Shown piece by piece: positions 2,332 through 23,454 of a DNA stretch of 64,000 bases; within the stretch, counting starts at the first letter, position 1, and each line of letters opens with the position of its first letter. The DNA lies in assembly GCF_039555335.1 (NCBI RefSeq), contig NC_092647.1, positions 18,756,946-18,820,945 on the forward strand. The letters are read 5' to 3'. A model generated the notes under the pieces. The model searched no databases. It was not told the origin of the DNA and saw only the letters and a program-made list of their open reading frames with translations. The position numbers and the translations under genes were made by a program. The DNA comes from Amphiura filiformis (Eukaryota).

Positions 2332-2344
2332 GTGAGAAATATAT

Positions 2345-2699: not shown

Positions 2700-3140
2700 T
2701 AGTATTGGTTCTGTAGTTCTTGAGATCTAGATATTTTGAGAAAATATCTCAAAACTTTTTATGTTGAGGCCTATGGCTAGCACGCACAGCATTAAGGAAA
2801 CATATGAAGGACTATCCGTGAAGAGATGCATTTGTAGGATTGAATAAATAGCTGCCAGATGGCATATTGTCAGATTGTGTACAATGTAGAATGCACAAAT
2901 TGTCAAATATCTATAGGGCAGCAATTGCAGTTTATGTCTGCCAAATCAAATCTAAAATTTACTCATAATTCTTAGCTTTTGCTATCTTGCCTGTGGACTA
3001 AGCCATCTGTGGCAAAGCTTTTGCCCTAAACCCCTGATTAATCCAATCCTTAATACACTGCGTGCTAGCCATACGCTTCAACATAACAAGTAAAAGTTTT
3101 GAGATATTTTATCAAAATATCAAGAACTATCTCAAGCACG
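2700..3140. mobile_element. Nonautonomous TIR element in intron 2. Related TIR fragments are at 27385-27480 and 36000-36075.
   Basis: Inverted repeats of ~85 bp (2700-2790 versus 3055-3140): ...cttgagatagttcttgatattttgagaaaatatctcaaaactttt.atgttgaagcctatggctagca. Confidence 0.5.
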
Positions 3141-3329
3141 CTTCTTCATGGCATCATCATATCAGCACCACATTCGCTGGTCAAGCTGCATAGCATCGCG
3201 TGACCTAGTTCTATTTACGCGATAATCACAAAGAACAGATGGACACTGTTGAAGGAATTTGCTGAATGGTATATTCTGAAAAGGTAAATACAATAAATAC
3301 AGCCAATGAAGAGCACACACATTCAGACA

Positions 3330-3900
3330 TTACTCCCCATTCCAGAAAAATACAGAACTATTTTTTTTTGGATTAAAAAAATATTATCCGGTTTTGCCAA
3401 ATGAAACCTAGCTTAATCATAATCCTTTAGGTAGTCCTAACTGGTAATAAAAGTCAAATTTTAATATTTGGTCAATTTTTGTAAATAAGGGTGTTTTTCG
3501 ACCATTTTCGTATTCTGTGACAATCAGGCACAAAGACTTGAACAAAGACTAATTTCAAGTTGTGCATTCTAATCTTTTTCATGCCCAATTAGCAAAAATA
3601 ACATACAATATTAAAATTATGAGCTAATTCTTAGCCTATACTCAAGATGTTGAATGCTTAGACTAGTGCCAAGTCTTACAATTTTGTCACTACAGTTGTA
3701 AGAAAACATGCAAAATTGCATGTTTTTGGAACATTTTACCTCAAATTGCAAAAATATTAAAATTGGACTTTTATTGCCAGTTAGGACAACTATAAAGGAT
3801 TAAGATTTAGCTATTTTTCATTTGGCAAAACAGGTTAATATTTTTTTAATTCCAAAAAATTAGTGCTGTATTATTCTGGAATAGGGAGTAGAAACAACAC
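3330..3900. mobile_element. Palindromic MITE, ~570 bp, with long hairpin arms
   Basis: ctccccattccagaaaaatacagaac...ccggttttgccaaatgaaa...cctttaggtagtcctaactggtaataaaagtc is mirrored by gacttttattgccagttaggacaactataaagg...tttggcaaaacagg...gttctgtattattctggaataggga(g). Confidence 0.55.
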
Positions 3901-4002
3901 ACTGAAGGAGTAGCATTAGGTTTGTTCTTTAGGATTAGGATTATTGTTGAAGTGACAACCACAAATTTTAAAGTTGTTCCAATATTTCTTATCTTAATTT
4001 AG

Positions 4003-4112
4003 TGTGAATCGTTTGAGTCTGGCCCATGGTGAAGTTGAGAAGGCTGTAAGACAGAGGTACATGCGAGGTGCAGCAGCAGAACTAGAGAGCAGACTACATG
4101 CATTGTTAGCTG
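4003..4112 (+). CDS. Exon 3
   Basis: Acceptor ttaatttag|TGTG, donor GCTG|gtgagt at 4113. Translates SVNRLSLAHGEVEKAVRQRYMRGAAAELESRLHALLA. Phase-consistent. Confidence 0.65.
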
Positions 4113-4172
4113 GTGAGTATTGAGGTTGCTTTTGTCTAGTGTTTTTTTACTTTGGTTTGCTCATGTTGTTAG

Positions 4173-4335
4173 GGCTGTGACACCGTGACTTCTCTTTAGT
4201 CCGAAGGGTCGCTAGTCTGAAGGTCCTCTAATCCGAAGTCGCTAGTCCGAAAACCAAATTAAGGTTGCTAATCTGAAGGTTCTCTAGTCCGAATATAGAA
4301 TAAGGGTTAGTGTTTGGGTTTAAAGTTAGGGTTTC

Positions 4336-4367
<32 letters not shown>

Positions 4368-4601
4368 CGAGCCTTATTCTATATTCGGACTAGAGAACCT
4401 TATTCATTATTTGGACTAGCAAACCCTCGGACTAGAGAACCTGATATTCGGACTAGAGAACCTGATATTCGGACTAGCGAACCTTGTTCAGAATTCGGAC
4501 TAGCGAATGGTAAATTATGTGTTCGGACTAGCGAACCTTCGGACTAAGGAGCCTTTGGACTAGGGAACCTTCTGACTAGAGAGTTGTCACCTGTGACACA
4601 G
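4173..4601. mobile_element. Hairpin element with an interstitial telomere-like (TTAGGG)n core and GACTAG(C/A)GAACC subrepeats
   Basis: TIR ggctgtgacaccgtgac / gtcacctgtgacacagc. Arms hold repeated tagtccgaa / ttcggacta units. Centre 4300-4370 is gggttagtgtttgggtttaaagttagggtttcgggttagggttagggtttagggttagggttag. Confidence 0.55.
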
Positions 4602-4669
4602 CATTTACATATTGACTGGGAAGGGAAGGGAACAGATGGCTGGCTGTAAGACAGAGATTCATGCAAGGT

Positions 4670-4790
4670 GCAGTAGCAGAGCCAGGGTTGCCAAACCTGC
4701 ATATTGGTAGCCCAATTGGGCGACTTTCGAAAATTTTCCCTGCGGCTTTTGACAATTTCCTGTCCCATAGAAACCACAGAGGTACATGCA
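4670..4790. repeat. Partial copy of the CAGGGTTGCCAAA MITE family (full copy at 25446-25692)
   Basis: ccagggttgccaaacc...tagcccaattgggcgactttcgaaaattttccc...cttttgacaatttcctgtcccatagaaacca matches the inner part of 25446-25692. Confidence 0.4.
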
Positions 4791-4864
4791 ACTTGTTGCT
4801 GAGAACATATTATGTACCGATTTTCCTAACTGCTAAACTGCTAACACTGTTTTAATTTATATAG

Positions 4865-5139
4865 GATATTTCTACTCCCAAGCTGACCCAAACAAGGACC
4901 ACACCTGGCGTGGCAAACAAGTGCGCCCTCTATCACACTTAGCCTACCATCTCGCAAGTGCCAATGCCTATCAAGATTTGGCTTCAGTTCTATGCAGCCT
5001 GCATTACATCAAGGTCAAATGTCAACTAGGCCTAGCTGCTCAGCTATTGGAGGATTATCAGGCTGTAGGAGGGACTACCAGCGCAAACCGCAGTGTGCAA
5101 AGAGAGAGGGAGAAGTTCTTAGCTAGGCCTAATATACAA
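4865..5139 (+). CDS. Exon 4 (linker with the HLAYHL...LCSLHYIKVKCQLGLAAQLLEDY motif typical of NACHT-WD/TEP1-like proteins)
   Basis: Acceptor tttatatag|GATA, donor CAAG|gtaagt at 5140. A 91-codon open frame: YFYSQADPNKDHTWRGKQVRPLSHLAYHLASANAYQDLASVLCSLHYIKVKCQLGLAAQLLEDYQAVGGTTSANRSVQREREKFLARPNIQ. Confidence 0.75.
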
Positions 5140-5199
5140 GTAAGTGTGATTATTCAAATTTCAAATGGATATTTCACCCATATTATAATAACATACAGC

Positions 5200-5615
5200 T
5201 TAGACATTTTGGATTTTAGTTTGACAGCTCTATGTTCGTTGAATAGATTCATCAGGTTTGTTCAGTAAATAGACATTTTGGATTTTAGTTTGACAAAACC
5301 GAGTGAATATTTGGTACTCACCACAATGTTTCGTCCTACTTATCGGAGGACTTCATCAGGTATGACTGATATGGTCATCTGATCCACTTTCCCGGGAAAC
5401 AAGCTTCCCGGAAACAAGTTTGAGTGGTTTCTGGAGTTGCTTGTTTCCCGGGAAAGTGGATCAGATGACCATATCAGTCATACCTTATGAAGTCCTCTGA
5501 TGGGTAGGACGAAATATTGTGGTGAGTACCAAATATTCACTCGGTTTTGTCAAACTAAAATCCAAAATGTCTATTTACTGAACAAACCTGATGAATCTAT
5601 TCAACGAACATAGAG
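5200..5615. mobile_element. Palindromic MITE with ~150-bp hairpin arms in intron 4
   Basis: ...ggattttagtttgacaaaaccgagtgaatatttggtactcaccacaat... mirrored as ...attgtggtgagtaccaaatattcactcggttttgtcaaactaaaatcc... around the centre ggaaacaagcttcccggaaacaag. Confidence 0.6.
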
Positions 5616-5859
5616 CTTGCTTGTATTGCACCTGAATCTATGTAATAGAAACCTTTATGTAGATAAATATAATACCTAATCACTTGTAGTAAGAAGGTTT
5701 TCTATATTCTCTGTTAAAGCCAGGCCCTTGGAACTTGGAAGTAAAACAGTGTATTAATATGAGACTTATTTTGGAAGGTTTGACATCACTGCCCTTAGAT
5801 TAATGTATTAAGTCTCGGGTTCATCGCACTATGTGCTATATTTTTAGTCTGTGATAAAG

Positions 5860-6175
5860 CTAAAGCATCCACTTTTTATGACATTTTTCAGTAGATATCC
5901 ACGAAAAGAGCTTATTCCCAAAATTTCAGTTGATTCCGATTTTGCGTTTGCGAGTTATGCATTATTATGTGTATTACACTGCTCCATAGGCCACTGTTGT
6001 AATTTCGTTCTGGTATACCAGAAAACAAATTTGACAATATTTTTGCTAAACGAATGATTCTCCAAGAAATTTTTGGTACATAAACATTATGTCACCAGAG
6101 GTTTCCAGTGGTGTAACAATCTCAACTTTTTTTGAGAAAAGTGGGGGGATGAGACTGTGGATCACGAAATGCCCT
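5860..6175. repeat. Dispersed repeat family. Related copies at 20045-20345 and 32440-32590.
   Basis: Shared blocks: atccac.aaa..gattattcccaaaatttcagttgattccgattttgc.tttgcgagttatgcat...ccataggccactgt.gtaatttt and gtcaccagaggtttccagtggt...gatgag.ctgtggatc.c.aaatgccc. Confidence 0.5.
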
Positions 6176-6600
6176 TTTACAAAGCCGTCAAAACATATCA
6201 CAATAAAAGGCTGATAACTCGGCTAACCAGGAGATTAGCATCAGGCTTAAGATAGAGGTTATCCACGTTACTCATGTGTGACTTCTAACAAAAGGCGCTG
6301 GTTCCCGTAGTATTCCTCATTCAAACCAATTCAATGCACAACCTTGGAATTACTTGCATGACTTTGGCGGGCTATTTTAAAACAGTCATGGTTGCACATG
6401 CAGGTACTTCTTTTGAAAATCCTAAACAAGGTCTAGCAGTCACTAATAGAATATGCAGCTTATAGAACACGGATAACCTCTATTATGGGTAGGGTTAGGT
6501 TAAAGTTAATCTTAATGGGATTAAGATATTAAGATTAGGATTATGGCTATGCGGACAACCACTGTTTTAAAGTTGCTTCAATATTTCTTTTCTTTGTCAG

Positions 6601-6822
6601 GTTTTCCGGTCTTTTGTCTCACGTAATCTTCACATTCTGACACGCTACCCTGCCCTCACTTGGCAGCAAGCAGCGAATGAGCCGTCAGATTCCCCTGTCT
6701 GTCAAGCTATCAGGACCATGATGGAAAGTTCACATGGCAATAGAGATCTCAATATCTTTGAATGGAAAAACAAAGCTGAAACTGAGGAGTCTTGCATGAT
6801 GACATTAACTGGGTGTTCACAG
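6601..6822 (+). CDS. Exon 5 (end of helical region, lead-in to the WD40 propeller)
   Basis: Acceptor ttctttgtcag|GTT, donor CACAG|gtaaga at 6823. 74 codons: VFRSFVSRNLHILTRYPALTWQQAANEPSDSPVCQAIRTMMESSHGNRDLNIFEWKNKAETEESCMMTLTGCSQ. Confidence 0.75.
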
Positions 6823-6869
6823 GTAAGAATCATTTGATTTTGATTTTAAAGATTTTTTTAATAAACTAT

Positions 6870-7150
6870 ATTTATGTAAATCCATATCAAAAGGATTCAC
6901 TTGTCGGTTGTTACATGTGTCTCTTTTTACATAATAGGAAATACCAGACTCATCTCAAGTAGTGGTCACTTCAAATCATCTTCAAGTGACATAGTTTTTA
7001 AGAATGTTTTCTGTATTCCTAAACCATGTGACCTGGGGAAGATTTGAAGTGACCTCCACTTGAGATGAGTCTGGTATTTATTCCTAGCTTTGATGTAAAA
7101 AAAGGCACATGTTACAGCCGACAAGTGCATCCTTTTGATATGGATATACA
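6870..7150. mobile_element. Palindromic hairpin element in intron 5
   Basis: Inner arms ccagactcatctcaagtagtggtcacttcaaatcatcttc / gaagatttgaagtgacctccacttgagatgagtctgg. Outer arms atccatatcaaaaggattcacttgtcgg.tgttacatgtg / cacatgttacagccgacaagtgcatccttttgatatggat. Confidence 0.55.
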
Positions 7151-7766
7151 TGTACACATAATAATTTGATGTCCAATTCAGACACCATTCTATCATAATG
7201 CCCAGGGCAGGTGTTTGAACAGCCTTGTTTTTTCAATCCCTTGGACACTACTGGTCATCTAACAGCATTTCTGATTGGTTTATAACTTGAAATGCTCATT
7301 TCTATTGCCAATTATGACTAGCCTTTAAACTATATATGGTCAAACTTGCATTTGCTGATAATCTTAATAATACCCTCCTTGATTGGTTCAAAATTGGACA
7401 AAATATTCATTTTGTCCAATCAGCAGGAAGTTCTTATGGTGTTAACCATGGAGGAGGTACTCAAGTTTGGCCTGGGTAGGGATGTGCCTCTGAGATACTG
7501 AAAATGGACCCATATTTATACTAATTTCCCAAAAATATTGACCCATTTCTTTACTGAGGCCCTGATTTAAACTAAATGGCTAAATTAAAGAAAATTCTAT
7601 GCAAAATTTCTGGAAAAAAAGACATTTGGGCTCCAGTTAGGAAAATGGGGATATTTCTTTAAAAAAAATGAAAACAATGACCCTTTATTTGTATCAAAAT
7701 GACCAAAAAATGGGTCATTTTTGAGCCTGTGTTCAGTATGATGAGTTTCTTTTCTTTCACTTACAG

Positions 7767-7862
7767 CCTGTTAACTGTGTAGCTATATCTGCTGGTGATC
7801 ACTTCTTTGCATCTGGTTCCCAAGACTGCTCAGTAAAACTCTATGACACAGAGACAGGAAAG
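7767..7862 (+). CDS. Exon 6 (WD40 repeat)
   Basis: cacttacag|CCT and GGAAAG|gtgagt. Translates PVNCVAISAGDHFFASGSQDCSVKLYDTETGK, a classic WD ending. Confidence 0.8.
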
Positions 7863-8059
7863 GTGAGTTAGGCAGATGTAAATAAATGGTGAGACTGGAA
7901 AAAAACCCAAGATTTTCTCTTTGTTGAACCTTGTTGCTGTATACCCTCTGCGCTAATTTACCACAGATACTTACATTTTGTTTACTGTGTTTGCTTTTAG
8001 ACCAATAATCATTACCCCAATAACAATAATACGAAACCATTCATTATTATTTTTCGCAG

Positions 8060-8184
8060 GAATTGAAGAGCTTTTTGGGACATTCAGATGCCATCATCAG
8101 TTGTTGCTTTGTAGGTAGACAGAGACTTGTAACTGCATCATTGGATAATACTCTCAGCCTTTGGGATGTTGAACATGGTCATAG
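8060..8184 (+). CDS. Exon 7 (WD40 repeat)
   Basis: ttttcgcag|GAA and CATAG|gtaagt. Translates ELKSFLGHSDAIISCCFVGRQRLVTASLDNTLSLWDVEHGH. Confidence 0.8.
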
Positions 8185-8264
8185 GTAAGTGATATGGTGT
8201 CTGTTTGCCTGTTAGTTTGCTGGGGTGCATTTGTTTGTGAGTATGTTTGTTTGTGTGTTTGTTA

Positions 8265-8985
8265 TGCATTGTAATGAAAGACAGAGATAAAAAGACTAAA
8301 TCGCGTCTGACGTCGCTGTCAATCAAATTCCCTACGATCCTTAAAGGCCCATATAAATTTAACAGATGTGGAAATAGGAGCATAAACTGACCAGTAAATA
8401 CCAGTTGTAGTCCTACTAATTCATGGCATATTGGATGGATGGCCTAGGGGAAAGTTAGCCCATATTTGCAAGACTATTCCTGCTTTCAAGGTGAAACAAA
8501 CCTACTCATGTTACCCTCTGGCCATGGGCTGGTCTGGTGTCAGATCTTACCCAGGGAAAGATGACATTCCAGTATTGGCCTTTAAGACAATAAACAAATA
8601 GTCCTTGATTTTTTAATAGCGCATAAAAGGAAGGCCGATTTATCTTGTCCCGATCGGAGAAAAGGAATAGCAGAAAATGGCGAAAATTATTTACTTTTAA
8701 AAAGGCAAAGAGCAACTTTTCTAGGCATTGTTGACATGGTGCCTTCGGGAAAGAAAGTTTCCTACTATAAAGACCTTAATTTTTGAGATGGTTTGTATGT
8801 TTGAAGGTGCAAAATTAACCAATATAAATAATCGATTAAATTATTAATAAGGGCCCCGGTTGTACCACCATGTTCAGCAAGTCATCATCACAACACTTGT
8901 TACCAAACCGTGCTCGATTGATTGATTGATTGATTGACAGATGACGGCAGACGTGATTTAGTCTTTTTATCTCTGTCTTTCATTA
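8265..8985. mobile_element. TIR MITE (~720 bp) in intron 7. A shorter relative lies at 13560-13975.
   Basis: TIR gaaagacagagataaaaagactaaatcgcgtctgacgtcgctgtcaatcaa (8265-8315) and its reverse complement at 8930-8985. The internal block 8700-8820 also appears, reversed, at 13690-13810. Confidence 0.6.
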
Positions 8986-9360
8986 TACCGGATACCCTGC
9001 CCCACTACAGGGGAGATACACAAGGTGTTGAATTTTGAGCTATTTTGTTGAGATAAGATTAGCTTAGAGACCAGCTGTAGACCCTGTTCCAGGAAATTGG
9101 TCATGTTAACAAAAGGAGTAGGCTACCCTGCACCGCAGGCGTATTCAGGTGAACTCAGGCATTGCTTACCCCCGGGGAAGGAGGGGAGGTATGCGGAGAC
9201 CAGCGCCTTAATGTTTACTCTTTGTAAAGGCTTCCTAGTGTTGTATAAAGTGTGCATAGAATATGCATGTTGTGGTCTTTTTTGGTCAATCTGGCTGTTG
9301 TCACTTGGTGGGCATTATGGGGCTTCATATTATTAATCATGTGTTTTTATTCTTGTACAG

Positions 9361-9619
9361 GATTGCTGTAATGAAAGGCCACAGGCGTCAAGTAAACCAC
9401 TGTTGCTCCAATGCTAGCGGCACTGTGATTGCTTCGTCATCATGGGATTGCTGCATCAAGCTTTGGGATGGCAACACTGGCAAACCCACTGATACTATCA
9501 GGGCAGACTCTAAACCAATCAACTGTGCTGCTTTCCACCCTGAAGGCAAACTGATTGCGACTGGCTGCTGGGATGCTACGCTGAAAATATGGGATAGCTT
9601 CAACAAGAAAAGAGTCGCT
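9361..9619 (+). CDS. Exon 8 (two WD40 repeats)
   Basis: tcttgtacag|GATT and GTCGCT|gtgagt. Translates RIAVMKGHRRQVNHCCSNASGTVIASSSWDCCIKLWDGNTGKPTDTIRADSKPINCAAFHPEGKLIATGCWDATLKIWDSFNKKRVA. Supported by the track ORF at 9263..9643. Confidence 0.85.
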
Positions 9620-9770
9620 GTGAGTAATTCATTTATAGTTTAATAAATTACACGGAGCGTATGCCCGTGAATTGTTCGCAATGCATTGTTCGTATTTTGT
9701 AATGTTTATTCTGATTGGTTCTCACTATCTAAGAGTGTACAAATACTATTTAAGATTGTCCAAACCAAAT

Positions 9771-10137
9771 TTAAGGTGGTACTACACCCCCTGATAAATT
9801 TTGTGACTAATGTTGCATTTTTCTCAAAAAATAACTGAACACTGGTAACAAAAGTTATGTATATTATTGGGGCAAGGAATCAAATTATTTCACTGAAATT
9901 TCAGTGATTCAAGACAAGTGGTTCATTATATATGTTAAGAAATGAGGTACATTCTAGTGGTACCTCTTTTCTTATCATAAATAACATACCGCTTGTCTTG
10001 AGTCACTGAAATTCCAGTGTAGTAACTGCATTCCTTGCCCCATAATATACATAACTTTTGTTACCAGTGTGTTATAATTATTTGAGAAAAATGAAAAAAT
10101 AGTCACAAATTTATCAAGGGGTGTAGCACCACCTTAA
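9771..10137. mobile_element. TTAA-flanked MITE (family A, TIR GGKGGTACTACACCCC). Other copies at 15919-16251 and 41093-41445.
   Basis: ttaaGGTGGTACTACACCCCCTGATAAATTTTGTGAC...GTCACAAATTTATCAAGGGGTGTAGCACCACCttaa. All three copies sit between TTAA tetranucleotides, the piggyBac-type target site. Confidence 0.65.
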
Positions 10138-10742
10138 GGAATAGTGATTTTCATTCATATTTAGCCAAAAATCAAGTGAAATAGCATGTTTGTATGATTT
10201 TTTTAGCGTATTTTTTGTACATAGCCAGTATTCCCAATTTTGCAAGGGCGCACTCATATTATGACACCATAGCGCTGTAATGTGGAGCATGTTGGTACTT
10301 ACTATGAACATTGTGTACGCGTTTTGACTAATATTTCCATCATAATGATTAAACAACAGTTCCTGTGCTTTATTCAAAGTTTTTGATTTTGACAAAACTA
10401 CAGCACCTTTTTAATTCTTGATTTTGATTTTTGCAGGGTATGTTAGTTTAATAAAGTACATTACAATGGTGTAAAAAAACAGAATTGTGAAAAATATTGA
10501 GGCGGCATCCTCAGCAAATGTTACCATATGGCTTTAAGTGAGAGGCATGCTAATTAGGTCTAATACAGTACTCTCTGTTATCAAAGTGTAATTTTTAATA
10601 CAAACACACATCACACTCCAAAATTCCATGGAAGATATTCAAAAATTTTGTTTGGATCAAAAATTGCAACTCCAATCACAAATTTACGAACACAGAAATC
10701 TTTAATTTGTATCTGTTGTTTTCAATTTATTGTTTTCTTTAG

Positions 10743-10862
10743 ATCTTGAGAGGTCACAGGTCATCTGTGAGGGCAGTAGCATATTCTCCTAGTGGTCGAC
10801 ATATCGCATCGGCATCATTAGATGGCGCTGTCAAACTTTGGTCAGCTAACACAGGAACACAG
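10743..10862 (+). CDS. Exon 9 (WD40 repeat)
   Basis: ttttctttag|ATC and ACACAG|gtgggt. Translates ILRGHRSSVRAVAYSPSGRHIASASLDGAVKLWSANTGTQ. Confidence 0.85.
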
Positions 10863-11239
10863 GTGGGTATTTCTTCTTGCTGTTTTAGTAGTTTTAATGA
10901 CAATGAAGGGAACAAATCAATACCTATGCATTTGTGACCCATCACATCGAAACAGACCACTTCGCGGCTAGCTTCATTGGCAGATAACAATGAAAGAAGA
11001 TAAAAAATTATAAAGAAAATAAAAAGAATTCTGAGCTTGTTTTTCCTCATAAAACATTTTTACTGTATCTGATTTCAACAAGTAATTAAAGGTGTCATTT
11101 TCAAGCTAAAAAGCAGCAGTTTAAATCTCCATTTTCATTTCTGCCACTAGGTGGTCTGTTTCAATGTGACAGGTCACATTTTTTCATTATGGTTGACAAA
11201 ATCAAGTAAATTTTTACTTGCTACAATATTTTGTCCTTC

Positions 11240-11800
11240 ACATCCGAGGACTGGAGGAGGATCAGATGTATAAATTTAAACTGGAATAGTCCATTGGAGT
11301 AGGACCTGATCTGCATTCTTACAATGAGTAGATAACTATGTTACTTTGTAATAATAAATCCAGAGGATTGGAGGAGGATCAGATGTATAAATTTAAACTG
11401 GAATAGTCCATTAGAGTAGCACCTAACCCACATTCTTACATGTACAATGAGTATGATACTATGTTACTTTGTAATAAAAAATCCTGTGAATTGGAGGAGG
11501 ATCAGATGTATAAATTTAAACTGGAATAGTCCATTAGAGTAGCACCTAACCCACATTCTTACATGTACAATGAGTATGATACTATGTTACTTTGTAATAA
11601 AAAATCCTGTGAATTGGAGGAGGATCAGATGTATATATTTAAACTGGAATAGTCCATTAGAGTAGGACCTAACCTGCATTCTTTCATGTATAATGAGTAT
11701 GATACTATGTTACTTTGTAATAAAAAATCCTGTGAATTGGAGGAGGATCAGATGTATAAATTTAAACTGGAATAGTCCATTAGAGTAGGACCTAACCCAC
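11240..11800. repeat. Intronic minisatellite: ~120-bp unit x about 5
   Basis: Repeated unit ggaggaggatcagatgtataaatttaaactggaatagtccattagagtag.acctaaccc.cattcttaca...actatgttactttgtaataa.aaatcc. Confidence 0.7.
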
Positions 11801-11864
11801 ATTCTTACAATAACTATGTTAATTTGAAATAATAAATCACATCCCTACTTAATCTTCTCATCAG

Positions 11865-11963
11865 GTTGGTAGTCTGACAGGTCACATGCAACCTATCAAT
11901 GCCTTGTGTTTCTCAGCAAATGGTCAGCAGCTGATTACAGCGAGTGAAGACCACAAAGTCAAA
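11865..11963 (+). CDS. Exon 10 (WD40 repeat)
   Basis: ctcatcag|GTT and GTCAAA|gtaagt. Translates VGSLTGHMQPINALCFSANGQQLITASEDHKVK. Confidence 0.8.
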
Positions 11964-13029
11964 GTAAGTAGTTTTGTTTTGAAAAGAAAGAGTGAACAGT
12001 TAACCAACCCAAAGTGTTATAATTAAACTAGATAGCAAATGTGACCATCCAGCACAACTGAGCCCTGAAGTCGCCAATCATCATTTTTGAGATAGTCAAC
12101 CAAAATATTTTGCTTGAAATTAGCTTTAAAATGATGTATATCATGTCTATAGTACTTGACATTTAAGTAGTGAAAAATCAATAAAACAGTCAATAAATCC
12201 TTTGTTTCATATTGTTTATTGTTAAGTTCAATGGAGCATTTCTCAATAGTGGCACTGGCGACATCCGGGCTTAGTTGTGGTGGATGGTCACATATAAATG
12301 AAATCCTGCCCGGCACACAACCTAATTGAAAAAATTAAGCAAGTAAATGTGCCGGTGTGGGATTTAAACCCAGGAACTCTTGTTTCTTAGTCGGACACTT
12401 TTTTTTTGTTCTTCCATTATATAATCTTGGTTTAGTATCAGTGTTTGAACAGTGAAGGGAGTGGGTATTTGACTTTCGAATTGACGAGTGTGTGCGGACA
12501 GCGATTCAAAACTAGGGTTCATCAGGTAGGGATTTGATGCCATAAAGAAGGTCATTGTGTGAAAAACCCTGAAAATGGGACTTGGCCAATTTTGGGCCTA
12601 TAAAAATGGAGTCAAAAATGAAGTCAAAATGGAGTAAAATCTGATAATGAAAAAAAAAAAAACATAACATAATTCCGGTCTTTTAAGAAAAAAAGGGTTA
12701 TCCGGTGAGAGCTTATCTAAAATGTATTAAAGCACTGTCGCCCATTTTAGTGAGTGCTGGGGGATACTACTTGAACCAGGGTAAATATCTTCAGTGGCAT
12801 GTGCTAAGGGGCCGGGGGGCTTGTGGCCACCACTTTTGCTGGTAAGTCGTGTTAAAATTTGGGACTACTATTACGGCGAGCGAGGCGAAAATTTTGGAAC
12901 AGTCGGGGGAATCGAGACCCATGGCCTCCCACTTTTAAGAACCTGCGAACACCACTGAATATCTTACCCACAGCTACCTTCGTCCAATATGTGACATGTT
13001 TTATTAGTAGACTGAATTGTACATATTGG

Positions 13030-13115
13030 CGTATGTGCTTTTGGCCCCTGAACATGTTTAAAACAAAACTGCCACAAGGTTACATAGGAGGTTTTGCTTT
13101 AAACTTGTTCAGGGG
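13030..13115. mobile_element. Mini palindromic MITE (~85 bp) with TIR GGCCCCTGAACATGTTTAAA. A second copy is at 38556-38640.
   Basis: ttttggcccctgaacatgtttaaaacaaaactgcc...tgctttaaacttgttcaggggccagtg, and likewise at 38556-38640. Confidence 0.5.
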
Positions 13116-13269
13116 CCAGTGACACATAGGAGTTTTTCTTGCCCAACAACGTTATGTATCTTCCTACCCAGTTGTTTTGACGGCCTAATTGTCATACTTG
13201 TATGCTTAGAAATGGAGTATGCAACTAATCAAAATTTGTATTCAACTAATCAAAATTTATATTTTACAG

Positions 13270-13530
13270 GTGTGGTCTGGTACTCTAGGAAAGAAAATCC
13301 TGACCCTAGGTGATAAGAATTCCAGCCATGCGACAGCCACTAGTTTCAGCCCAAATGGAGCCCAAATTGCTGTAGGTTATCATGACGGACGTGTGCGGTT
13401 ATACGAGGTCAGCAGCGGTGCCGAGCTGTTTGCGGTCGTGTTTTCGTCACGTGTCAAGTGTCTGAAATGGTGTTCCCTACCCGGTGGAAAGAGGTATCTG
13501 CTAGTAGGCTTTGATAGTGGGCATGTGGAG
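13270..13530 (+). CDS. Exon 11 (two WD40 repeats)
   Basis: attttacag|GTG and GTGGAG|gtaggt. 87 codons: VWSGTLGKKILTLGDKNSSHATATSFSPNGAQIAVGYHDGRVRLYEVSSGAELFAVVFSSRVKCLKWCSLPGGKRYLLVGFDSGHVE. Confidence 0.85.
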
Positions 13531-13559
13531 GTAGGTTATTAGCACTTTATTTTACATAC

Positions 13560-13975
13560 CTTATTGGTTATTATCAAAGACAGAATTAAAAAGACTAATT
13601 TGCGTCTGACATCATCTGTCAATCAAACTCTGCCGCGATTTATTTACGAGTGGCGTGATGATTGAGTTTCTGAATATGGTGGTAAAACAGCATGCCTGAT
13701 GGTTAATTTTGCACCTTCAAATATACAAACCGTCTCAAAAGCAAGGTCTTAGTAATAGGAAACTTTCTTTCTGAAGGCACCATGTCAACAATGCCTAGAA
13801 AAGTTGCTTTATGCCTTGTATTAGGACCATAACTTTTCACCATTTTCGGTGATTCCTTTTCTCCAATTAGCACCAGATGAATCAACCTTCCTTTTAATGC
13901 ACTATTAAACAATCAAGTATCATGGGGTGTTTGATTGACAAAGATGTCAGACGCAGACTAGACTTATAAATCTGT
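13560..13975. mobile_element. Second copy of the 8265-8985 MITE family
   Basis: TIR tcaaagacagaattaaaaagactaatttgcgtctgacatcatctgtcaatcaaactc (13565-13622) and its reverse complement at 13918-13975. Confidence 0.55.
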
Positions 13976-14000
13976 CTCAGATTGTAAGCGATAGACATAG

Positions 14001-14524
14001 ATTGGGCTATTCCAGATGTATTCCGCACCCCCTATGGAAGACACTTCCGAATTGGGCTAAATTGACAGCGGAAAACCCATGGAAGACACTGCGGAATTGT
14101 GGTAATATGGCCAGCCGGAATTCACGTAAATGTAAATGTCTTCCATAGGATTCCAGCTGGAATGAGAACATTTTTTGTTTCCAGCCAGAATTCAAGTAAA
14201 TGTCTTTCATAGGTTAATCGAGATGGTGATCATAAGTGAAGATTCTGCTGGAATTGGAGCATTTTTGACCATTTTCCAGCGGAATATTAAGAAATGTGAA
14301 TGTCTTCCATAGGCACATCATGGCCTTTCACAATCCCCACTCTTTGTTTTTTCGTTTATTTTAGCAGCCGGAATTTCAATGTCTTCCATACCCTACAGCC
14401 GGAATCTTTGCTAAAAATGACTGCTGGAATTCTAGACACATCTCAATTCCAGCTGGAATTGTATTTTTTTTTAATGTCTTCCATAGGGGGGGGGGGTGCG
14501 GAATACATCTGGAATAGCCCATTG
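14001..14524. mobile_element. Composite hairpin element of the CTTCCATAG family (family C), with internal ~60-bp subrepeats
   Basis: TIR attgggctattccagatgtattccgcaccccctatggaagaca / tgtcttccatagggggggggggtgcggaatacatctggaatagcccatt. Inside are 7-8 repeats of ccagc.ggaat...gtcttccatagg. Confidence 0.6.
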
Positions 14525-14852
14525 TGATCGTTGCTCAGCTTCTCAGTGTGATTATTGTGAGGAAGATTAAGTAGAAAAATAATGTATAAAGACATTACAT
14601 CTTAACTTGAGACAAAATATCACTTAGTATTAGTGATCAATAGTGCAATGTTTTGGTATAGGCCTATATGAAGGTATTTAGTAAATAGAATTTGGAGCAT
14701 GGTCGTTCAACAAGCAATGAGTAATGAGCACTGTCTCATACTTTAGTCATTTTTGCAAACATTAAGATGATCTGTATTGCATGTGCCCATTGAGATTTGA
14801 AAATCATATTCTCCTTAATTGATAATTGTTTTGCTTCAGACATTAGTTACTA

Positions 14853-14947
14853 GTACTGTACTGTACTGTACTGTACTGTACTGTACTGTACTGTACTGTA
14901 CTGTACTGTACTGTACTGTACTGTACTGTACTGTATTGTACTGTACT
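14853..14947. repeat. (CTGTA)n microsatellite, about 19 units
   Basis: Perfect actgtactgtactgta... run. Confidence 0.9.
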
Positions 14948-15918
14948 AGTTAATAGTAAGGGTCTACCTGGCATCTGCAGTATAATATGAACCGAACTGA
15001 CTAACACTGTTGACTTAGTTATTTTTGTACAACTCCAAGAAAAGTAAAGGTTTTCAACTCATGTTTTTTCACTTTTCACACTAGTGGTTTCATCAGACTA
15101 GCAACCCATCACATCTGACTGTTTCCATTTATAGCAAGGATTCTCGAGTACTAATATACTATAGGATAAGCCACTCGTTTGTGCAAATGAAGTCAGTCAT
15201 TCAGCCTGTGCGCGATAATGCATGTGATGGCATAGTACCCCTGTACGTGTAGGAGTATATCACCTGTGGGAGAGATGATGCATGTTTACGTCATCATTTA
15301 AAAAAAAATTAAATGGCGAAAAACGGCGAACATTTGGTCGAATCTTTCCATTACTATTATATAGTGAAAAACCAAATAGCTGAGGAGTTAGCTCAATATG
15401 CTAGGAAAATATTCTCTTCGATGACCCCATGACGAGACTGGCTAAATAAGCTGTATTTTTGCTGGAAAGGGTCCGAATAATTGGCAGTCGATGTGCGCCA
15501 TCTTGGAAAATAGCTTGAAATAGACTTCCTCGACAGTCGTTCAAGATTAGAACTGAGATCTGGAACTTCATTAACCAATCAAATCTTGCGCACTCAAATG
15601 ACCTAGCAACTGTCAATCAAATACAGGATAAGTCCTTTTGAACAATAAAGCAGTCTTGCGCATCATAGCCGTTCACAAGTACGTAAGATTTAGGCTACGC
15701 TCTCAAATGCATAGCAACCGGCATAGCAACCGTCCTCAAACTGCCGGGCGAAGTGACTTCATTTTTATACAGGGATTGAATACTGAGTGTCACGGCCATG
15801 TTTATAGGTGACAGGAACTGCCATAGAAGGCGTGATAAGAGTGTCTTTTCCTTTTTGGCATATCCTGATGACTTCTTTTAGCCCAGTGTAGTGGTAAAAG
15901 GTCACTAAAAATGCGAGT

Positions 15919-16251
15919 TTAAGGGGGTACTACATCCCTGCCCAATTTTGTGCCCATTTTGCATTTTTCTCAAAAATTATAGCGCATTGGTGACAAGTAA
16001 GATATGTATATTATAGGGGCAAGGACTACAACTACTGCACTGGAAATTTTATTTCAGCACAGACAACAGTTGTGGAGTTACAGTCAAAAATGAGGGAAAC
16101 CAATATTTGATCAATAAATCAATAACTACTTGCAGTAGCTGTAGTCATTGCCCCTATAATATACATATCTTACTTGTCACCAATGCGCTATAATTTTTGA
16201 GAAAATTGCTAAAATAGACACAAAATTGGCCAGGGGTGTAGTACCCCCTTA
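15919..16251. mobile_element. TTAA-flanked MITE family A, copy 2
   Basis: tttaaGGGGGTACTACATCCCTGCCCAATTTTGTGCC...GGCCAGGGGTGTAGTACCCCCttaa. Its internal sequence aligns with 9771-10137 and 41093-41445. Confidence 0.65.
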
Positions 16252-16341
16252 ACACCTTCATTTTTCAACAGTTGAATCTAACATTGCAAATGAACTTATT
16301 CAAAGAAACTGACTAATACTTTTCATATATCATAATTCCAG

Positions 16342-16509
16342 TTGTTAGCTGACAATGGAAACATAGTCTTGAGTTTGATTGACTCACCAAGCAGCTCTGT
16401 TACAAGTGTCACCTACAGCCATGTTAATAGGCTGGTGGCAGTAACGATATGAGGATAACTCCATCTATCTATGGAGGTTGCAATATGAGCTGAAGTCAAG
16501 CAAGAAAAA
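16342..16509 (+). CDS. Exon 12 (WD40 repeat) with an internal +1 frameshift between 16445 and 16453
   Basis: Acceptor aattccag|TTG at 16341, donor AAAAAG|gtaagt at 16510. The 5' part is open only in frame 0 (LLADNGNIVLSLIDSPSSSVTSVTYSHVNRLVAVT) and hits TGA at 16450. The 3' part is open only in frame +1 (RYEDNSIYLWRLQYELKSSKK). The 5' frame matches exon 11 and the 3' frame matches exon 13. Confidence 0.65.
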
Positions 16510-16690
16510 GTAAGTCAATTGTAAAATAACAGAATTAGCGGTTCATTCATATATTTTCATGACTAAACGATTGTTTTGCCCAAGAGGCTGTTTGTGATCT
16601 GAGGGCATAAACAAGGTTTAGTCGTGAAAATATATGAATGAATCTTGTTCATATATACATAACAGAATATTTTGTGATTCTTATTTCATT

Positions 16691-17336
16691 AAGGGAAGGG
16701 GTATGAGCGTTTGGACAGTATTTATTGTGGGACATTAGAGCACATCAGACATATCGAATTGCATTCTGAATACAAAGAATGTCCTTCTGATATCAAATAA
16801 TTTTGATTTTTTGAAATTATCAAGGTAATACACATTTTATGGCAAATGACTAAAAATTGATATTTTTGATATTTAACAGTACTCGAAGTAAACTTTATAA
16901 ATCTGATGATTTATACTTAACGTGTATGTAGGTGGGATGAAAAGCTGACGATCAATTGAAAATTTTGACCTTTCGTATTGAAGATATGGATTTTTTTCCC
17001 CAAAACACAAAAAAAATTAGGTCTTTTTGGGAAAAAATCCATATTTTCAATATGAAAGGTCAAAATTTTCAATTGATCATCGGCTTTTCCTCCCAGCTGC
17101 ATACACTTTAAGAATATATACTTCAAGGACTGTTATATATCAAAAATGTGAAAAATATCAAATTTTAATAAGTTGTCATAAAATTTGTATTATACCGTGA
17201 ATTTCAAAAAATGTAAATTATTTGATATTAGAAAGATATTCTTCGTATTCAGAATGCAATTTGATATGTCTGATGTGCTCTCATGTCCCACAAAAAATAC
17301 TGTCGAAAAGCTCAAAACGCTCATTCGAGATTCCTT
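16691..17336. mobile_element. TTAA-flanked palindromic MITE, ~650 bp (family B). Other copies at 33013-33669 and 44893-46249; fragments at 52690-52870 and 59100-59300.
   Basis: cattaaGGGAAGGGGTATGAGCGTTTGGACAGTATTTATTGTGGGACAT...arm...central gatcaattgaaaattttgacctttc palindrome...ATGTCCCACAAAAAATACTGTCGAAAAGCTCAAAACGCTCATTCGAGATTCCttaa. Confidence 0.65.
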
Positions 17337-17680
17337 AAAATAATAACAAAAATTCAAAAGTAACATTATCAAAAAAAAGATAATTTTCCTTAATTTTTCC
17401 CTACCTGCAATCACATATCCAAGCCACCTTGTTTAAATTTGTTTACTTCATGGTGGAGCACGGATGTGTATCCACAGCATAAGTGACATCATGTATTGCG
17501 GAAATATTGAACGTGTAACCAAGCTTACTGGTATGCGTAGAATGTGTTATGCTTGATACATTGTTACAGAATAATGAGCTTTCATGTGATGCGTTTTGAC
17601 AAATCACTGTGCATGATTTTCAATAATGGGTTGGGAGGGTAATAGATAGTGTCTAATAGAACATGGGTAGGGACCAATGT

Positions 17681-17966
17681 AATTGGGCTATTCCATTTAA
17701 AATCCACACTACCCCTGTGGAAGATTTAGCTAAGGTCTTCCACAGAGGGAGTATGAGTTTCAAATAGAATCAACATTTGCGTAACTTCCATTTGAATTAC
17801 TCACTCCAGTTGTGGAAGATATTGGCAAACCTACAATACAGGGGGAGTATGGGTTTCAAAGTGACTAACCCTGACCAATTACATTTGAGAAACATACTCC
17901 TCCCGTGGAAGATATTTTCAAAATCTTCCATAAGGGTAGTGTTGATTTCAACTGGAATAGCCCATT
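17681..17966. mobile_element. Family C hairpin element copy (TIR AATGGGCTATTCCA)
   Basis: aattgggctattccatttaaaatccacactacccctgtggaagat...cttccataagggtagtgttgatttcaactggaatagcccattg. Confidence 0.55.
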
Positions 17967-18010
17967 GCATGAATCTACTCAGCTGTTTAAGAATGATTTT
18001 TTTAATCCAT

Positions 18011-18097
18011 CTTGATAGGTCTGCGCCCAAACCTGAGGCTATAATGCATGCAACATGCAATGGAACACTCATGATTCTGTTTTATTCCCCTTGATAG
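18011..18097. repeat. 80-bp tandem duplication of the exon 13 acceptor plus the first 57 nt of the exon (decoy acceptor)
   Basis: cttgataggtctgcgcccaaacctgaggctataatgcatgcaacatgcaatggaaca (18011-18067) matches cttgataggtctgcacccaagcctgaggccataatgcatgcaacctgcaatggaaca (18091-18147). Splicing at the upstream copy reads into TGA. Confidence 0.7.
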
Positions 18098-18206
18098 GTC
18101 TGCACCCAAGCCTGAGGCCATAATGCATGCAACCTGCAATGGAACAATAAGCTGCTCAGATCTTAACAAAGATGGAACTCGACTTATCACAGCTAGCAGA
18201 GATGCA
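18098..18206 (+). CDS. Exon 13 (WD40 repeat)
   Basis: ccccttgatag|GTCT and GATGCA|gtaagt. Translates SAPKPEAIMHATCNGTISCSDLNKDGTRLITASRDA. A decoy copy of the acceptor and first 57 nt lies 80 bp upstream. Confidence 0.75.
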
Positions 18207-19854
18207 GTAAGTCTGATTAACATGATTGTAAACACAGCCAAAAAAGAAAGTCTCCAGTAGTTCCATCCCCATTTAATCAGAGTCTGATGAGTTTATGGCT
18301 AAATAATTTATATAATAATTTTCTATACACTTTCCTTCAAAGGTTGATATCAAATTTGATATAAAAAGTTTAATCATCATGGGCATAGGAGCCGTTGTTT
18401 GGCAATTCGTGCAATTTTAAAAATGACAAATTACGAATTGACCACGCAAAATCCAATGCTTGGTATCAGCTTATTATGTGGCCTGAAGCAACCCGTACAG
18501 GAATCATTGCACACTTGCCTGCGCACAATTGAAAGAGCGGGGTATTTGATTTGCATTTTGACATGCATGGGTAAACCTTTAACCTGCCGGCCTATTCAGG
18601 CGACGTAATTCTTGGCACTCAAGCTAGCTCTGCTACGTGATACAATTCCCTATGTCATTTTTAAAATTGAGCGAATTTCCAAACAACGGTTTCTATGCTC
18701 ACGATGATCAAACTTTTGATATCAAATTTGGTATCAACCTTTGAAGGAAAGTGTATAGAAAATTATTATATAAATTATTTTGCCATAAACTCATCAGACT
18801 CTGATTAAATGGGGATGGAACTGCTGGAGACTTTCTTTTTTGGCTGTGTTTATTAATCCTGTATTGAAGATGTGATCCATTAGAAAAATGGAAACTTGGG
18901 TTATTTTTGCCAACTATTACACATGGGTTGATTTTGCAGATATTTGATTACTTTTTCAGTATCTGGTACTACATGATCCCAAAGTGGGCCCTGAATAATG
19001 TACAAATTCAATTTCATAATACAAAATTTGCATACAGAAGCAATGCAATATGCATAATAATAATATTATTACTTAATATGTATACACTACTGTATTACAT
19101 CCGAATGAGTTAATTATGTTTTTTTTTTCTTTTCGACAGCCATGGTGTTACTGCCTCTGGTTTATTGAAAATAGATTATACAACAAAAAATAAACATGGC
19201 TGATTTTTTAGGTTTTAAGAAAAACAAACAAAAATACACACACACAAAATTACAGTTGCAGCAAACAAATTGAATTGTCAGTTTTCAAGAAACTGAAACA
19301 TAGCCAAGTACAAATGAATTATGTGCATACATTGTATAGATACGGGTACAAGTACATTCCGTGCAAAAACGATACAATTATTTTTCCAAGTGTACACCAC
19401 AATTAAAGAATGAGATTTATAAGTCAAACCTCCATTTTTTAAAATGAGGGGCAGTTTGTTGCTCTTGTTAGCAGTGCTATATTCAGTTTCTCTGATGGTT
19501 TTTGTGGAAAGGATATTATTTGCCATTTGCTACCAAAATGAGGTCCTCCTGCAAATGCATGCGCAAAATGTCCACTTCTATTTCTTGCGCTTTTCTAGCG
19601 CAGAGCCAGAAGGCTTTTGCAATGCGTACACATTAATTAAAGCATGCGTTTGATAGGTGTATCTACATTCAGTATGCACTTTGCGGGTAGAACCTCGTTT
19701 TGATATGATATGACCATGCGATTGGCGAATATTAACATTACAAAATACTGATGTAGATTTTCCTTACAAAAATCACAAATATGAGTATTTTTTTGTTATT
19801 GTCTTTTCAAACTTGTGCTATGGTTTTCTAAACTCGGTCATTTTCATTTTTTAG

Positions 19855-19986
19855 AGTATATTTGTTTGGACTACGGGTCAAGAATCGCTGGATGCAGGAG
19901 GTCCTTATACACCACTTATATCAATGCATGGATGCCATAAAGACTGGATTAATGCATGCACTTTGTCTGATAATGCTGAATACTTG
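19855..19986 (+). CDS. Exon 14 (WD40 repeat)
   Basis: ttttttag|AGT and TACTTG|gtaagt. Translates SIFVWTTGQESLDAGGPYTPLISMHGCHKDWINACTLSDNAEYL. Confidence 0.8.
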
Positions 19987-20339
19987 GTAAGTGTTTTTTA
20001 TGGTTAAGTTTCTTTAAAGGATTATTTTGTGATTCTTGCATCCTCTTTTTATGGTATGTTTGAGTAGATCCACAAAAAAAAGATTATTCCCCAAATCTCA
20101 GTTGATTTCGATTTTGCATTAGCAAGTTATGCATGATAGATAATGGATATTACAATTTGTTCCATAGGCCACTATGCTGTAATTTTATTTTGGTAACAGA
20201 ACACGATTATAAATTTTACGATAATTTTGCTAAGCGAATGGATCTACAAGAATTTTTGCACATAAACATTATATAGCCAGAGATTTCCAATGGTATAAAA
20301 ATGGGGGATGAGGCTGTGGATCTCAAAATGCCCCTTAGA

Positions 20340-20595
20340 CGACAAAAAAAGAAAACCCTGTTCTACGGGCCCGACCAACCCAGATTTTGAACAAATTATG
20401 AAAAAAAATTTCCTGTACAAATGAATGCCGACCCAATTTTTGGAAATTTCAGGAACAAAATTTTTTCCCTATTTTCTCAGATTGCAAATTACTTACAGAT
20501 TTTGGTGATATTTTGGGTCATTTAAAAAAAAAAAAAAGCAGACTGACCGACCTTACTTGAAAGGTCTGTCCGCCCGCAGAACAGGGCTCAGCGTC
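20340..20595. mobile_element. MITE with TIR CCCTGTTCTACGGGC. A second copy lies at 26500-26645.
   Basis: gaaaaccctgttctacgggcccgaccaacccagattttg...gtctgtccgcccgcagaacagggctcagcg. 26500-26645 reads aaaaaccctgttctacgggcccaacaacccagattttg...gtctcgccacctgtagaatg. Confidence 0.5.
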
Positions 20596-21749
20596 ATCAT
20601 CCCTATATCTTCGTGTCAAAAATTGCTGTGATAGTACGGTGAACCATCTCATTTTTCAACAGCTACGCATGGCGATTTTGTTCGAGATAGGCTGAGCGAC
20701 TCAGGCTAAGCATACCATTTACAAGATATGAGATACCACAGAGCCTGCCACAGAGTTTCTATTCTACGTTTTTATGATTTGCGCATGATCAGTACCCCAT
20801 ATGATATTGCCATTATAAGAAAATTCGATTTGTTGTCAGGCAAAATCTTATCTGCATCAATAATAGAATATTGATTTCAATCGAATTGAATACATCTCTC
20901 CATTTTGAGTTTGTACTTCCCCACTGAGCGATCTAGCGATTGATTTCTAGCCAGTCAGATAGGACTCCTTTTCTTGCATTCGGTGAAACACCAATCGCCC
21001 GTCGCTCACCAACGGAGTATTAAGTTTATATTTATAATACAGGGTGTTGACACTGTGCAGGGTTTCGCCTTAAAGTTATGAAAATACCAAATTTGGCTTC
21101 ATGATATCTTAACCCCCTGAGGAATAGTACCTTTTTTGCAGCATTTCTGATTTTTTCACAACAGAGTCTCTGATTGGATAATTACACAATATTATCATCT
21201 GAGTAACCAATCAAAATAGAGCTTACAGACAGGGTTGTATCTAGCAGGGTGGCAACTGAGCCAAACAGCGATGATGAGTGCTGGGGGCGGCAATTTACAG
21301 AATTTGCTTGATTTAGCAAGATTTCAACAACAGTGGACACTTTCATGATAAATTTGTTAAAATACACTTGCTTTTTTTCAGTTTGAGTGGTGGGCTCTAG
21401 CATCAAAATGAACCTTCAGTGGTGAGCTCCAGAAGTGAGTGGTGGGCTCCACCGCCCACTGCCACCCACCGTAGCTACAACCCTACTTATAGGTCTCTTA
21501 GCAACTTTAAGCTTAATCCTCTTCAGCCCTTATGGGCATTCTTACCACATTTCTGATTGGCTCAATACATGGTAGCCCTCCTCCTTGTAACCAATCAATT
21601 GAGTTCTTAGAGGGTGATAATTCGACTGGTTGTGCCCATGGTTTCAAAATAAGAACAATGCGAGGATCACATGGGCTCAGTTGATTCTGTTGGAATGTAC
21701 ATATATGTGTATGTATGTTATAAGTATCAATTTGTTTTTATTTTCTTAG

Positions 21750-21857
21750 GTAACAGCATCCAATGATTTCACCCTCAAGTTGTGGGATATGAAGACCCAA
21801 AAAGAGAAGTATCAGTTTGTTGGACATAACAGCGCAATCAACTCAGTGGCATTTGCT
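21750..21857 (+). CDS. Exon 15 (WD40 repeat)
   Basis: ttttcttag|GTA and TTTGCT|gtaagt. Translates VTASNDFTLKLWDMKTQKEKYQFVGHNSAINSVAFA. Confidence 0.85.
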
Positions 21858-22202
21858 GTAAGTACAGACGTAATCTTGTAATATGAGACTGTGAGATCTT
21901 GTTTTCCATCGTCAGAACTGGGGGTGAAAATGTAATAACTTTACATGCTTGTGTTTGATGCCAGAAATAGGAAAAATATCACCAAAATTTATTATTATTT
22001 TCAAATAAATTTCTTGGAAGTGACACAATCATGACCTTGTTTACTCTTGTGTTTGAGAAAACCTGTTTTCAAAACCAGTACAGAAATGCCCAAACTGAAC
22101 ACTCTAGATGATGTGAAGTACAGTACCAAATTACTTCTGTGTTATTATGAATTAAGAGTTTCTTCTCAATTAAACAAAGAATAGCAGGCTATAAAAGATT
22201 TG

Positions 22203-22570
22203 GCACAATAAAAAAAAAAAGCAAAAAAAAAAGCGCAGTGATTTATAGTGCACTACGTGCAGGCACAACGCCTAGACGTTGATCCACAAGCCTCAGCACA
22301 CTTTACAGGTTGTCGCTGACCACTACGGCCCCACATCATTCCAGAAAAAATTAAACAACAATTCAGGGACTTTTGCTGCTTCAAGAGAGCACACCCTAGA
22401 CATTCCACTAATAACCATCGCAACCAGGATCAGCTCCCCGAGTTTCGTACGGGTTACAACGAGACAAATTAGCAGTGAGTTCCTTGTCCAGGGGAATTTC
22501 AAGCTAACTCAATTTTTCAAGCTAACTCAATTTTTTCCATGTGAGCGTACTAGGCACTTGGCGTAAAACA
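22203..22570 (-). mobile_element. SINE-like retroelement copy, 5'-truncated, minus orientation
   Basis: Its reverse complement aligns over ~360 bp with 30385-30862, including ...gtgcactataaatcactgcgc(T)n. The T/A-rich tail (A11GCA10 on the plus strand) is at 22205-22228. Confidence 0.6.
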
Positions 22571-22731
22571 ACTCGGCTTCGCCTCGTTGTTTTACTTCAA
22601 ATAATGATGTCGCCCGTGTTATATGAGAAGATAGATGCACTCCAGCGGCTAAAAACAATACCTTTATTCTCTAAATGGTGCACAATATTAGCAATTGTTC
22701 AAATACTACTTGTCTTTTGATTTTGTTACAG

Positions 22732-22867
22732 TATGGTTGTGTTGTATCAGCCTGCTTTGATGGCACAGTGAAAGTGTGGTCACACAAAGGAGTTGAAATC
22801 ACTACCCTCTATGGGCATAGCCAGAGAGTCAACAGCTGTGATATCTTTGTTCAAGCACCAGATCAAG
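22732..22867 (+). CDS. Exon 16 (WD40 repeat)
   Basis: ttgttacag|TAT and ATCAAG|gtaagt. Translates YGCVVSACFDGTVKVWSHKGVEITTLYGHSQRVNSCDIFVQAPDQ. Confidence 0.85.
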
Positions 22868-23454
22868 GTAAGTGTTGTATATATACTTTGTTTCAGGTTG
22901 AGTTTGGTAACCAGGTACGTATTTTGGTGGGTTGCAGTATTAAATTATGCATGTCAGCTAATCCCGCCGAGCGGCGTATCTGCTTAGAAGCAACAACATC
23001 ACTACCAAACTTGAGGAGAAATGAAGTATCGGTTGCTGATTATTGATTGTTAAGTCAGTAGCGTAACCAGGGGGCAGAGTGCCCTCCCGACAAAATATAA
23101 AGAGAAAATTGCCCCTCTGACAAGAAGTGAAAGAAAATCGTCTGGAAGGCGGGAAAAGAAAAGCGGAAAGGGGACGTCAACCAGTGGGCCAAAATAGTGT
23201 AAAATATCAATTTTTTGCATGCTATGCGTGCACAATTGTCCAAGTAAAACCCTTTTTTGGAACCTTGAAGACTTAACACGTACAGTCGCTTCAAAAACCC
23301 CATATATGTAATTATGTATATATCTCGCCAATAATACAGGGTCAAAATGATGCACATTTGTTTTGTTTCTTCCCAAAAATTTTTATTTTGCCCCACCCAA
23401 CAAAGAAATCTGGCTACGCTATGGTGAAATCATCACACTTTATCGTCATAGATA

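Follow-up and report, generated by a model that had tools for sequence, protein, structure and literature searches.

A single supernumerary nucleotide interrupts the reading frame of exon 12 in a telomerase protein component 1 (TEP1) orthologue of the Amphiura filiformis genome assembly

In the genome assembly of Amphiura filiformis, one exon of a gene encoding WD40 repeats is open in two different reading frames, and the question arises whether this break represents an ordinary one-base change, a decayed gene, an exceptionally short intron, or a site of ribosomal frameshifting. The locus was analyzed in a window of 64,000 nucleotides (contig NC_092647.1, positions 18,756,946 to 18,820,945 of the forward strand), the whole stretch of DNA to which the coordinates below refer. 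The window contains no Ns, has a G+C content of about 36%, and is metazoan-like in composition.

The gene model was built from open segments of the plus strand linked via frame-consistent GT-AG sites, which gave 22 exons, the focal one being the twelfth. The translated model with the break repaired (1109 aa) matched two TEP1-specific Pfam propeller families, Beta-prop_TEP1_2nd (PF25047, 275.5 bits against a curated cut-off of 89) and Beta-prop_TEP1_C (PF25048, 184.7 bits against a curated cut-off of 32). A named orthologue was picked by an exhaustive representative search and local BLAST. The search was dominated by multi-repeat WD40 proteins, and the only clear named orthologue among its matches was a protein of the sea urchin Lytechinus pictus (P0162). 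The closest named orthologue found is annotated as "telomerase protein component 1-like" (XP_063952437.1 / XP_063952436.1) and shares 46% identity with the model across 992 aligned positions, residues 1490-2449 of XP_063952437.1 pairing with model residues 8-982. A separate search with a 498-aa protein returned mostly generic WD40 proteins, with an unnamed JGI TEP1 fragment (40% identity) as the top match. In tblastn, L. pictus TEP1 residues 1331-2371 were colinear, exon by exon, with positions 267-27091 of the window, including the non-WD linker. With both the TEP1-specific propellers and colinear orthology to an annotated TEP1 present, the gene is identified by homology as the C-terminal part of TEP1, a vault- and telomerase-associated TROVE-NACHT-WD40 protein. 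The N-terminal part of about 1330 residues (the TROVE and NACHT parts) lies upstream of the window, which begins at approximately orthologue residue 1331. An exon of 110 nt at 4003-4112 (SVNRLSLAHGEVEKAVRQRYMRGAAAELESRLHALLA) was overlooked by simple ORF inspection and was detected only via the sea-urchin orthologue and an ENA contig; the exon after it begins at 4865 (GYFYSQADPNK...), not at 4883.

The position of the break was delimited by three-frame translation of the region 16300-16530, and the features involved are listed in Table 1. In frame 0, which is set by the acceptor of exon 12, the exon reads ...LLADNGNIVLSLIDSPSSSVTSVTYSHVNRLVAVTI and then meets the TGA, in agreement with the initial annotation, which had described the 5' part as open only in the frame of exon 11 up to this codon. 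The +1 frame contains the TAA and is then read as RYEDNSIYLWRLQYELKSSKK as far as the donor AAAAA/gtaagt. The third frame of the exon 12 region is closed as well, and the 3' part is, as had been claimed, open only in the +1 frame. Because the TAA and the TGA bound the two open frames, the frame switch is confined to positions 16445-16449. The GT-AG phases of the neighboring exons fit the proposed junction of the +1 frame with exon 13 (...KK/K SAPKPE). A phase-0 junction with exon 11 and the one base contributed by exon 13 require exon 12 to have a length of 2 mod 3. At 36 and 22 codons, the two open stretches are statistically unremarkable when taken alone. When the repaired exon was used as a tblastn query, its residues 1-35 fell on 16342-16446 (frame 1) and its residues 36-56 on 16448-16510 (frame 2), with base 16447 left over; the same search detected no second copy of exon 12 and no alternative exon in the window. 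Judged by homology, the split within exon 12 is real, both halves aligning, with no gap at the break, to one WD40 blade of TEP1 orthologues.

Table 1. Coordinates of the TEP1 gene model, of exon 12 with its parts, and of the adjoining exons in the window.
Feature	Position	Strand	Basis
C-terminal 22 exons of the TEP1 (telomerase protein component 1) orthologue	276..35850	+	Pfam, colinear tblastn, splice-site model
Exon 11, with a phase-0 3' end (...GFDSGHVE, then gtaggt)	13270..13530	+	Frame-consistent splice sites, tblastn
Exon 12, 168 nt as assembled; 167 nt (2 mod 3) required for phase 0 to phase 2	16342..16509	+	Acceptor ttccag at TTG, donor gtaagt at 16510
5' segment of exon 12, frame 0: LLADNGNIVLSLIDSPSSSVTSVTYSHVNRLVAVT	16342..16446	+	Three-frame translation, tblastn
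13-nt GTAACGATATGAG, bounded by GT..AG, rejected as intron	16441..16453	+	Alignment score
TAA closing the +1 frame; 5' limit of the frame switch	16442..16444	+	Three-frame translation
Supernumerary base: G16446 (removal gives ACA TAT) or A16447 (removal gives ACG TAT)	16446..16447	+	ORF test
3' segment of exon 12, +1 frame: YEDNSIYLWRLQYELKSSKK followed by 2 of the 3 bases of a Lys codon	16448..16509	+	
TGA in frame 0; ends the in-window model prematurely at codon 665; 3' limit of the switch	16450..16452	+	
Exon 13, 1 base finishing the Lys codon (K SAPKPEAIMH...), ends in phase 0	18098..18206	+	

For comparison, the L. pictus gene locus was reached through the isoform X1 record (P0271). The orthologous exon (L001:40871-41046) comprises 176 nt (2 mod 3), as against the 168 nt (0 mod 3) of exon 12 as assembled; it is open in a single frame and has the same intron phases of 0 and 2. 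It reads ...ITSLAYSNATHTAAVTYDNMCVALW..., and the repaired exon 12 reads ...VTSVTYSHVNRLVAVTYEDNSIYLW...; the two align without gaps, and AVTY is identical across the break. Six further TEP1-like homologues are also gap-free at this point and follow the WD40 register x-[SA]-x-x-[DE]-D-x-[ST]-[ILV]-x-[ILV]-[WY]. The L. pictus and window genes therefore share the boundaries of exon 12, its intron phases, and AVTY, whereas in the window gene alone an extra base puts the last ~590 residues beyond standard decoding.

The in-window coding sequence as assembled halts at codon 665, and 52 stops occur in that frame. After deletion of either G16446 or A16447, it becomes an uninterrupted ORF of 1258 codons that extends to its own stop at 35848-50. 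The proposal that dropping one nucleotide of ACGATAT restores the frame was borne out; the product reads ...VAVTYEDNSIYLW..., and the sea urchin has AAVTYDNMCVALW at this place in one frame. In a global alignment to the L. pictus exon, the one-nucleotide repair obtained the best score (54), and the alternatives considered below scored 46, 29, 31, and 20. The lesion is thus exactly +1 nt, located between the Thr and Tyr codons of a WD40 blade, and its removal restores ...AVTYEDNS...; all other exons and splice sites of the TEP1 model are intact. As for the identity of the base, ACG is the rarest Thr codon of the coding sequence (6 of 80 Thr codons), in which the CpG observed/expected ratio is 0.31. 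The rarity of ACG in this CpG-depleted sequence hints weakly at G16446 as the extra base.

Another way of restoring the frame would be excision of the 13-nt GTAACGATATGAG, or of 19 nt at 16435-16453, either as an ultra-short intron or in some unconventional splicing event, which would yield ...RLVA/DNSIYLW.... The GT..AG borders and the frame restored on removal are shared with the ultra-short spliceosomal introns of ciliates and nucleomorphs. Those introns measure about 15-25 nt, however, whereas the present piece is shorter, lies in a gene of metazoan type, and would take conserved residues with it. To our knowledge, 13 nt is below the length of any spliceosomal intron; neither a branch point nor a polypyrimidine tract would fit into it, and the other 21 introns of the gene, all with GT and AG ends, range from about 200 to 4100 nt. 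Its excision would also remove VTYE, including the conserved VTY, and upset the fixed WD40 spacing, so that the product would not be colinear with the orthologues. The alignment score falls from 54 for the one-nucleotide repair to 29 (13 nt) and 31 (19 nt). By a rough estimate, a GT..AG pair of suitable length would be expected by chance near any frameshift in about 1 in 10 cases. The initial annotation had already regarded the 13-nt intron as implausible, and the loss of VTYE with the drop in score leads to the same view; the probability of either excision is considered negligible.

A real insertion might, in principle, be rescued in part by alternative splicing, either by use of a cryptic acceptor at 16454 after exon 11, a join that keeps the frame and costs 37 residues, or through the joint skipping of exons 12 and 13. 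Phase arithmetic is compatible with both routes: the 56-nt segment 16454-16509 starts in phase 0 and ends in phase 2, and exons 12 and 13 together run from phase 0 to phase 0, with exon 11 ending and exon 14 starting in phase 0. The acceptor at 16454 is, however, preceded by a purine-rich stretch without a polypyrimidine tract, and the corresponding product scores 20 against 54 for the one-base repair. The rescue products would be devoid of most of a propeller blade or more, and the second beta-propeller would probably be destabilized. Partial rescue by either route is accordingly rated as very unlikely.

Some structural peculiarities were observed around exons 12 and 13. A 79-nt tandem duplication (88% identity; 18001-18067 and 18080-18146) has copied the 3' splice site of exon 13 together with its first 49 nt, and the upstream duplicate gives a second candidate acceptor for exon 13 at 18019. 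Rescue through this acceptor was considered and rejected: the 79 nt gained by its use lead into a stop, and the exon 12 TGA already lies upstream. MITE-like inverted-repeat elements flank exon 12 in both introns (15919-16252, 16542-16642, 16697-17321, and 16909-17119). The Rfam matches were only sub-threshold miRNA hairpins on intronic inverted repeats, e.g., MIR7504 with 68.9 bits where the gathering score is 83.

If the extra base were genuine and fixed, TEP1 could be made through an antizyme-like +1 ribosomal frameshift at AUA-UGA-G: AUA (Ile, 16447-49) would be decoded, the ribosome would stall at the 0-frame UGA, and translation would go on with GAG GAU AAC, giving a full-length TEP1 with ...VAVTIEDNS.... 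The arrangement resembles that of antizyme-type +1 sites (UCC-UGA-U, to which those of yeast EST3, ABP140, and Ty1 are related) in that a sense codon directly precedes the 0-frame stop and coding resumes in the +1 frame, here open from the UGA to the exon end; the product would equal the orthologue in length and align with it without gaps. This layout is trivial, since TAT-GAG read one base early contains TGA. In contrast to antizyme-type sites, exon 12 has another shift codon and shows no stimulatory structure, no Rfam match, and no conservation in the orthologue, whose exon lies in a single frame. The shift would replace the conserved Tyr of AVTY with Ile, lowering the alignment score from 54 to 46; the conservation of this Tyr speaks for an extra base upstream of TAT. 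The established +1 shift motifs are UCC-UGA-U, CUU-AGG-C, CUU-AGU-U, GCG-AGU-U, CUU-UGA-C, and AAA-UAA, and the site ACG-AUA-UGA-G fits none of these heptamers. Downstream of the UGA, the spliced mRNA has no stable structure (60 nt, z -0.36; 90 nt, z -0.15); the z-scores against shuffled sequences at the site were -0.36, -0.15, and -1.58 in pseudoknot-free folding. No Rfam family was found on exon 12, even at E <= 10, and a full-text search of the literature yielded no article describing programmed frameshifting of TEP1. Conservation in L. pictus, a known shift-prone motif, and a stimulatory RNA element in such folding or in Rfam were all missing here, and such decoding of TEP1 is regarded as highly improbable. 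Were it true, it would represent regulated recoding in a metazoan telomerase/vault-associated protein.

Sequences of relatives were sought in public collections. A word-indexed protein search with exons 12-13 (a 5.8-billion-sequence collection) returned no protein with even three shared 5-residue words, and back-translated and exact-pattern scans of JGI metagenome contigs gave no match to exon 12; in the searchable collections, exon 12 was not covered by any sequence from the species itself or from a near relative. A search with the non-WD region retrieved three short ENA metagenome contigs (0.6-1.8 kb) from related species with 75-89% nucleotide identity, none of which extends to exon 12. These contigs, L003 (ERZ23486772, SAMN14350114 scaffold_205926), L002, and L004, align to 4000-5145 and 6604-6724 of the window, and the TEP1 exons on them are separated by shorter introns than in the window gene. 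Because the contigs carry related TEP1 exons, public metagenomes evidently include DNA of relatives of the species, as contaminant or host.

The comparison with L003 bears on the reading of TEP1 as a fixed pseudogene in A. filiformis. The premature stop, at codon 665 of the 1258 in-window codons, would cost about 590 C-terminal residues, which speaks for this reading. It is, however, the single disabling lesion across 3.78 kb of coding sequence. The 594 codons 3' of it contain no stop and still match the TEP1 Pfam propellers and the sea-urchin orthologue, and the splice sites are all intact, with GT and AG at each modelled intron. Between exon 4 and L003, identity is 83% at the nucleotide and 90% at the amino-acid level, and the dN/dS ratio over 91 codons is 0.04. 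The multiple lesions, lost splice sites, and relaxed constraint that characterize processed or decayed pseudogenes were not found. If fixed, the pseudogene would have to be extremely recent. Fixation of a TEP1 pseudogene in this species is rated as very unlikely, and an old pseudogene is unlikely from the sequence.

It is very probable, then, that a single supernumerary nucleotide of ordinary cause (G16446 or A16447) is present in TEP1 exon 12 and that nothing special decodes it; as written, translation would end at the TGA. The base may be a genuine insertion allele of the sequenced individual, which would be heterozygous, segregating, or very recent. Such an allele would end translation early, and its mRNA would probably be subject to nonsense-mediated decay. 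A genuine insertion allele is given close to an even chance, and an indel error of the consensus or assembly a nearly equal one; all other explanations together are improbable. We lean very slightly toward a real allele, because residual consensus indels concentrate in homopolymers, the context AACGATATG is not a homopolymer, and TEP1 is dispensable in mouse, as knock-outs have demonstrated. Counting against a real allele are the strong constraint on TEP1 and the general frequency of indel errors in draft assemblies. Of the three options offered by the initial annotation, an indel or a null allele was therefore retained; a pseudogene, at least an old one, became unlikely with one lesion and a dN/dS of 0.04, and recoding gained no positive support.

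The frameshift-interrupted models of draft assemblies (NCBI "LOW QUALITY PROTEIN") and ordinary loss-of-function alleles likewise have a single 1-nt indel in an intact, conserved multi-exon gene. As in those cases, the repaired reading of TEP1 is colinear with the orthologues, and no feature distinguishes the present one from them. Biologically, the break is of little weight. For annotation, it is of use: TEP1 should be modelled with a one-base correction at 16446/16447, or be flagged as low-quality or as a null allele, and neither a 13-nt intron nor a split into two genes should be annotated. If the insertion is real, it adds a further null allele of natural origin to those of TEP1, consistent with the dispensability of the gene in mouse. 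It would be noteworthy only if the extra base were fixed and the full-length protein were still made, which is unlikely.

Several features were noted elsewhere in the gene and downstream of it. An 87-nt tandem array (5.7 copies, 96% matches) occupies 30857-31355, and each of its units has TTTCAG followed by TGATGACTGG..., which duplicates the acceptor and the beginning of exon 21 (31302-31593). Because the array repeats this acceptor, the gene model is least certain at the junction of exons 20 and 21. A difference of 23 residues between the two annotated isoforms of L. pictus TEP1 lies at the donor that follows ...LWKPLQ. This donor is homologous to the window junction 24668/24669 and has no relation to exon 12. 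No convincing second gene was seen in the 36-64 kb part of the window. The regions 41700-43700 and 56000-58000, located 3' of TEP1, contain a block of low complexity in which GGN/CCN runs occur together with repeat ORFs rich in His and Ser on both strands, and an AT-rich microsatellite block (GC 0.25) is also found in this downstream part.
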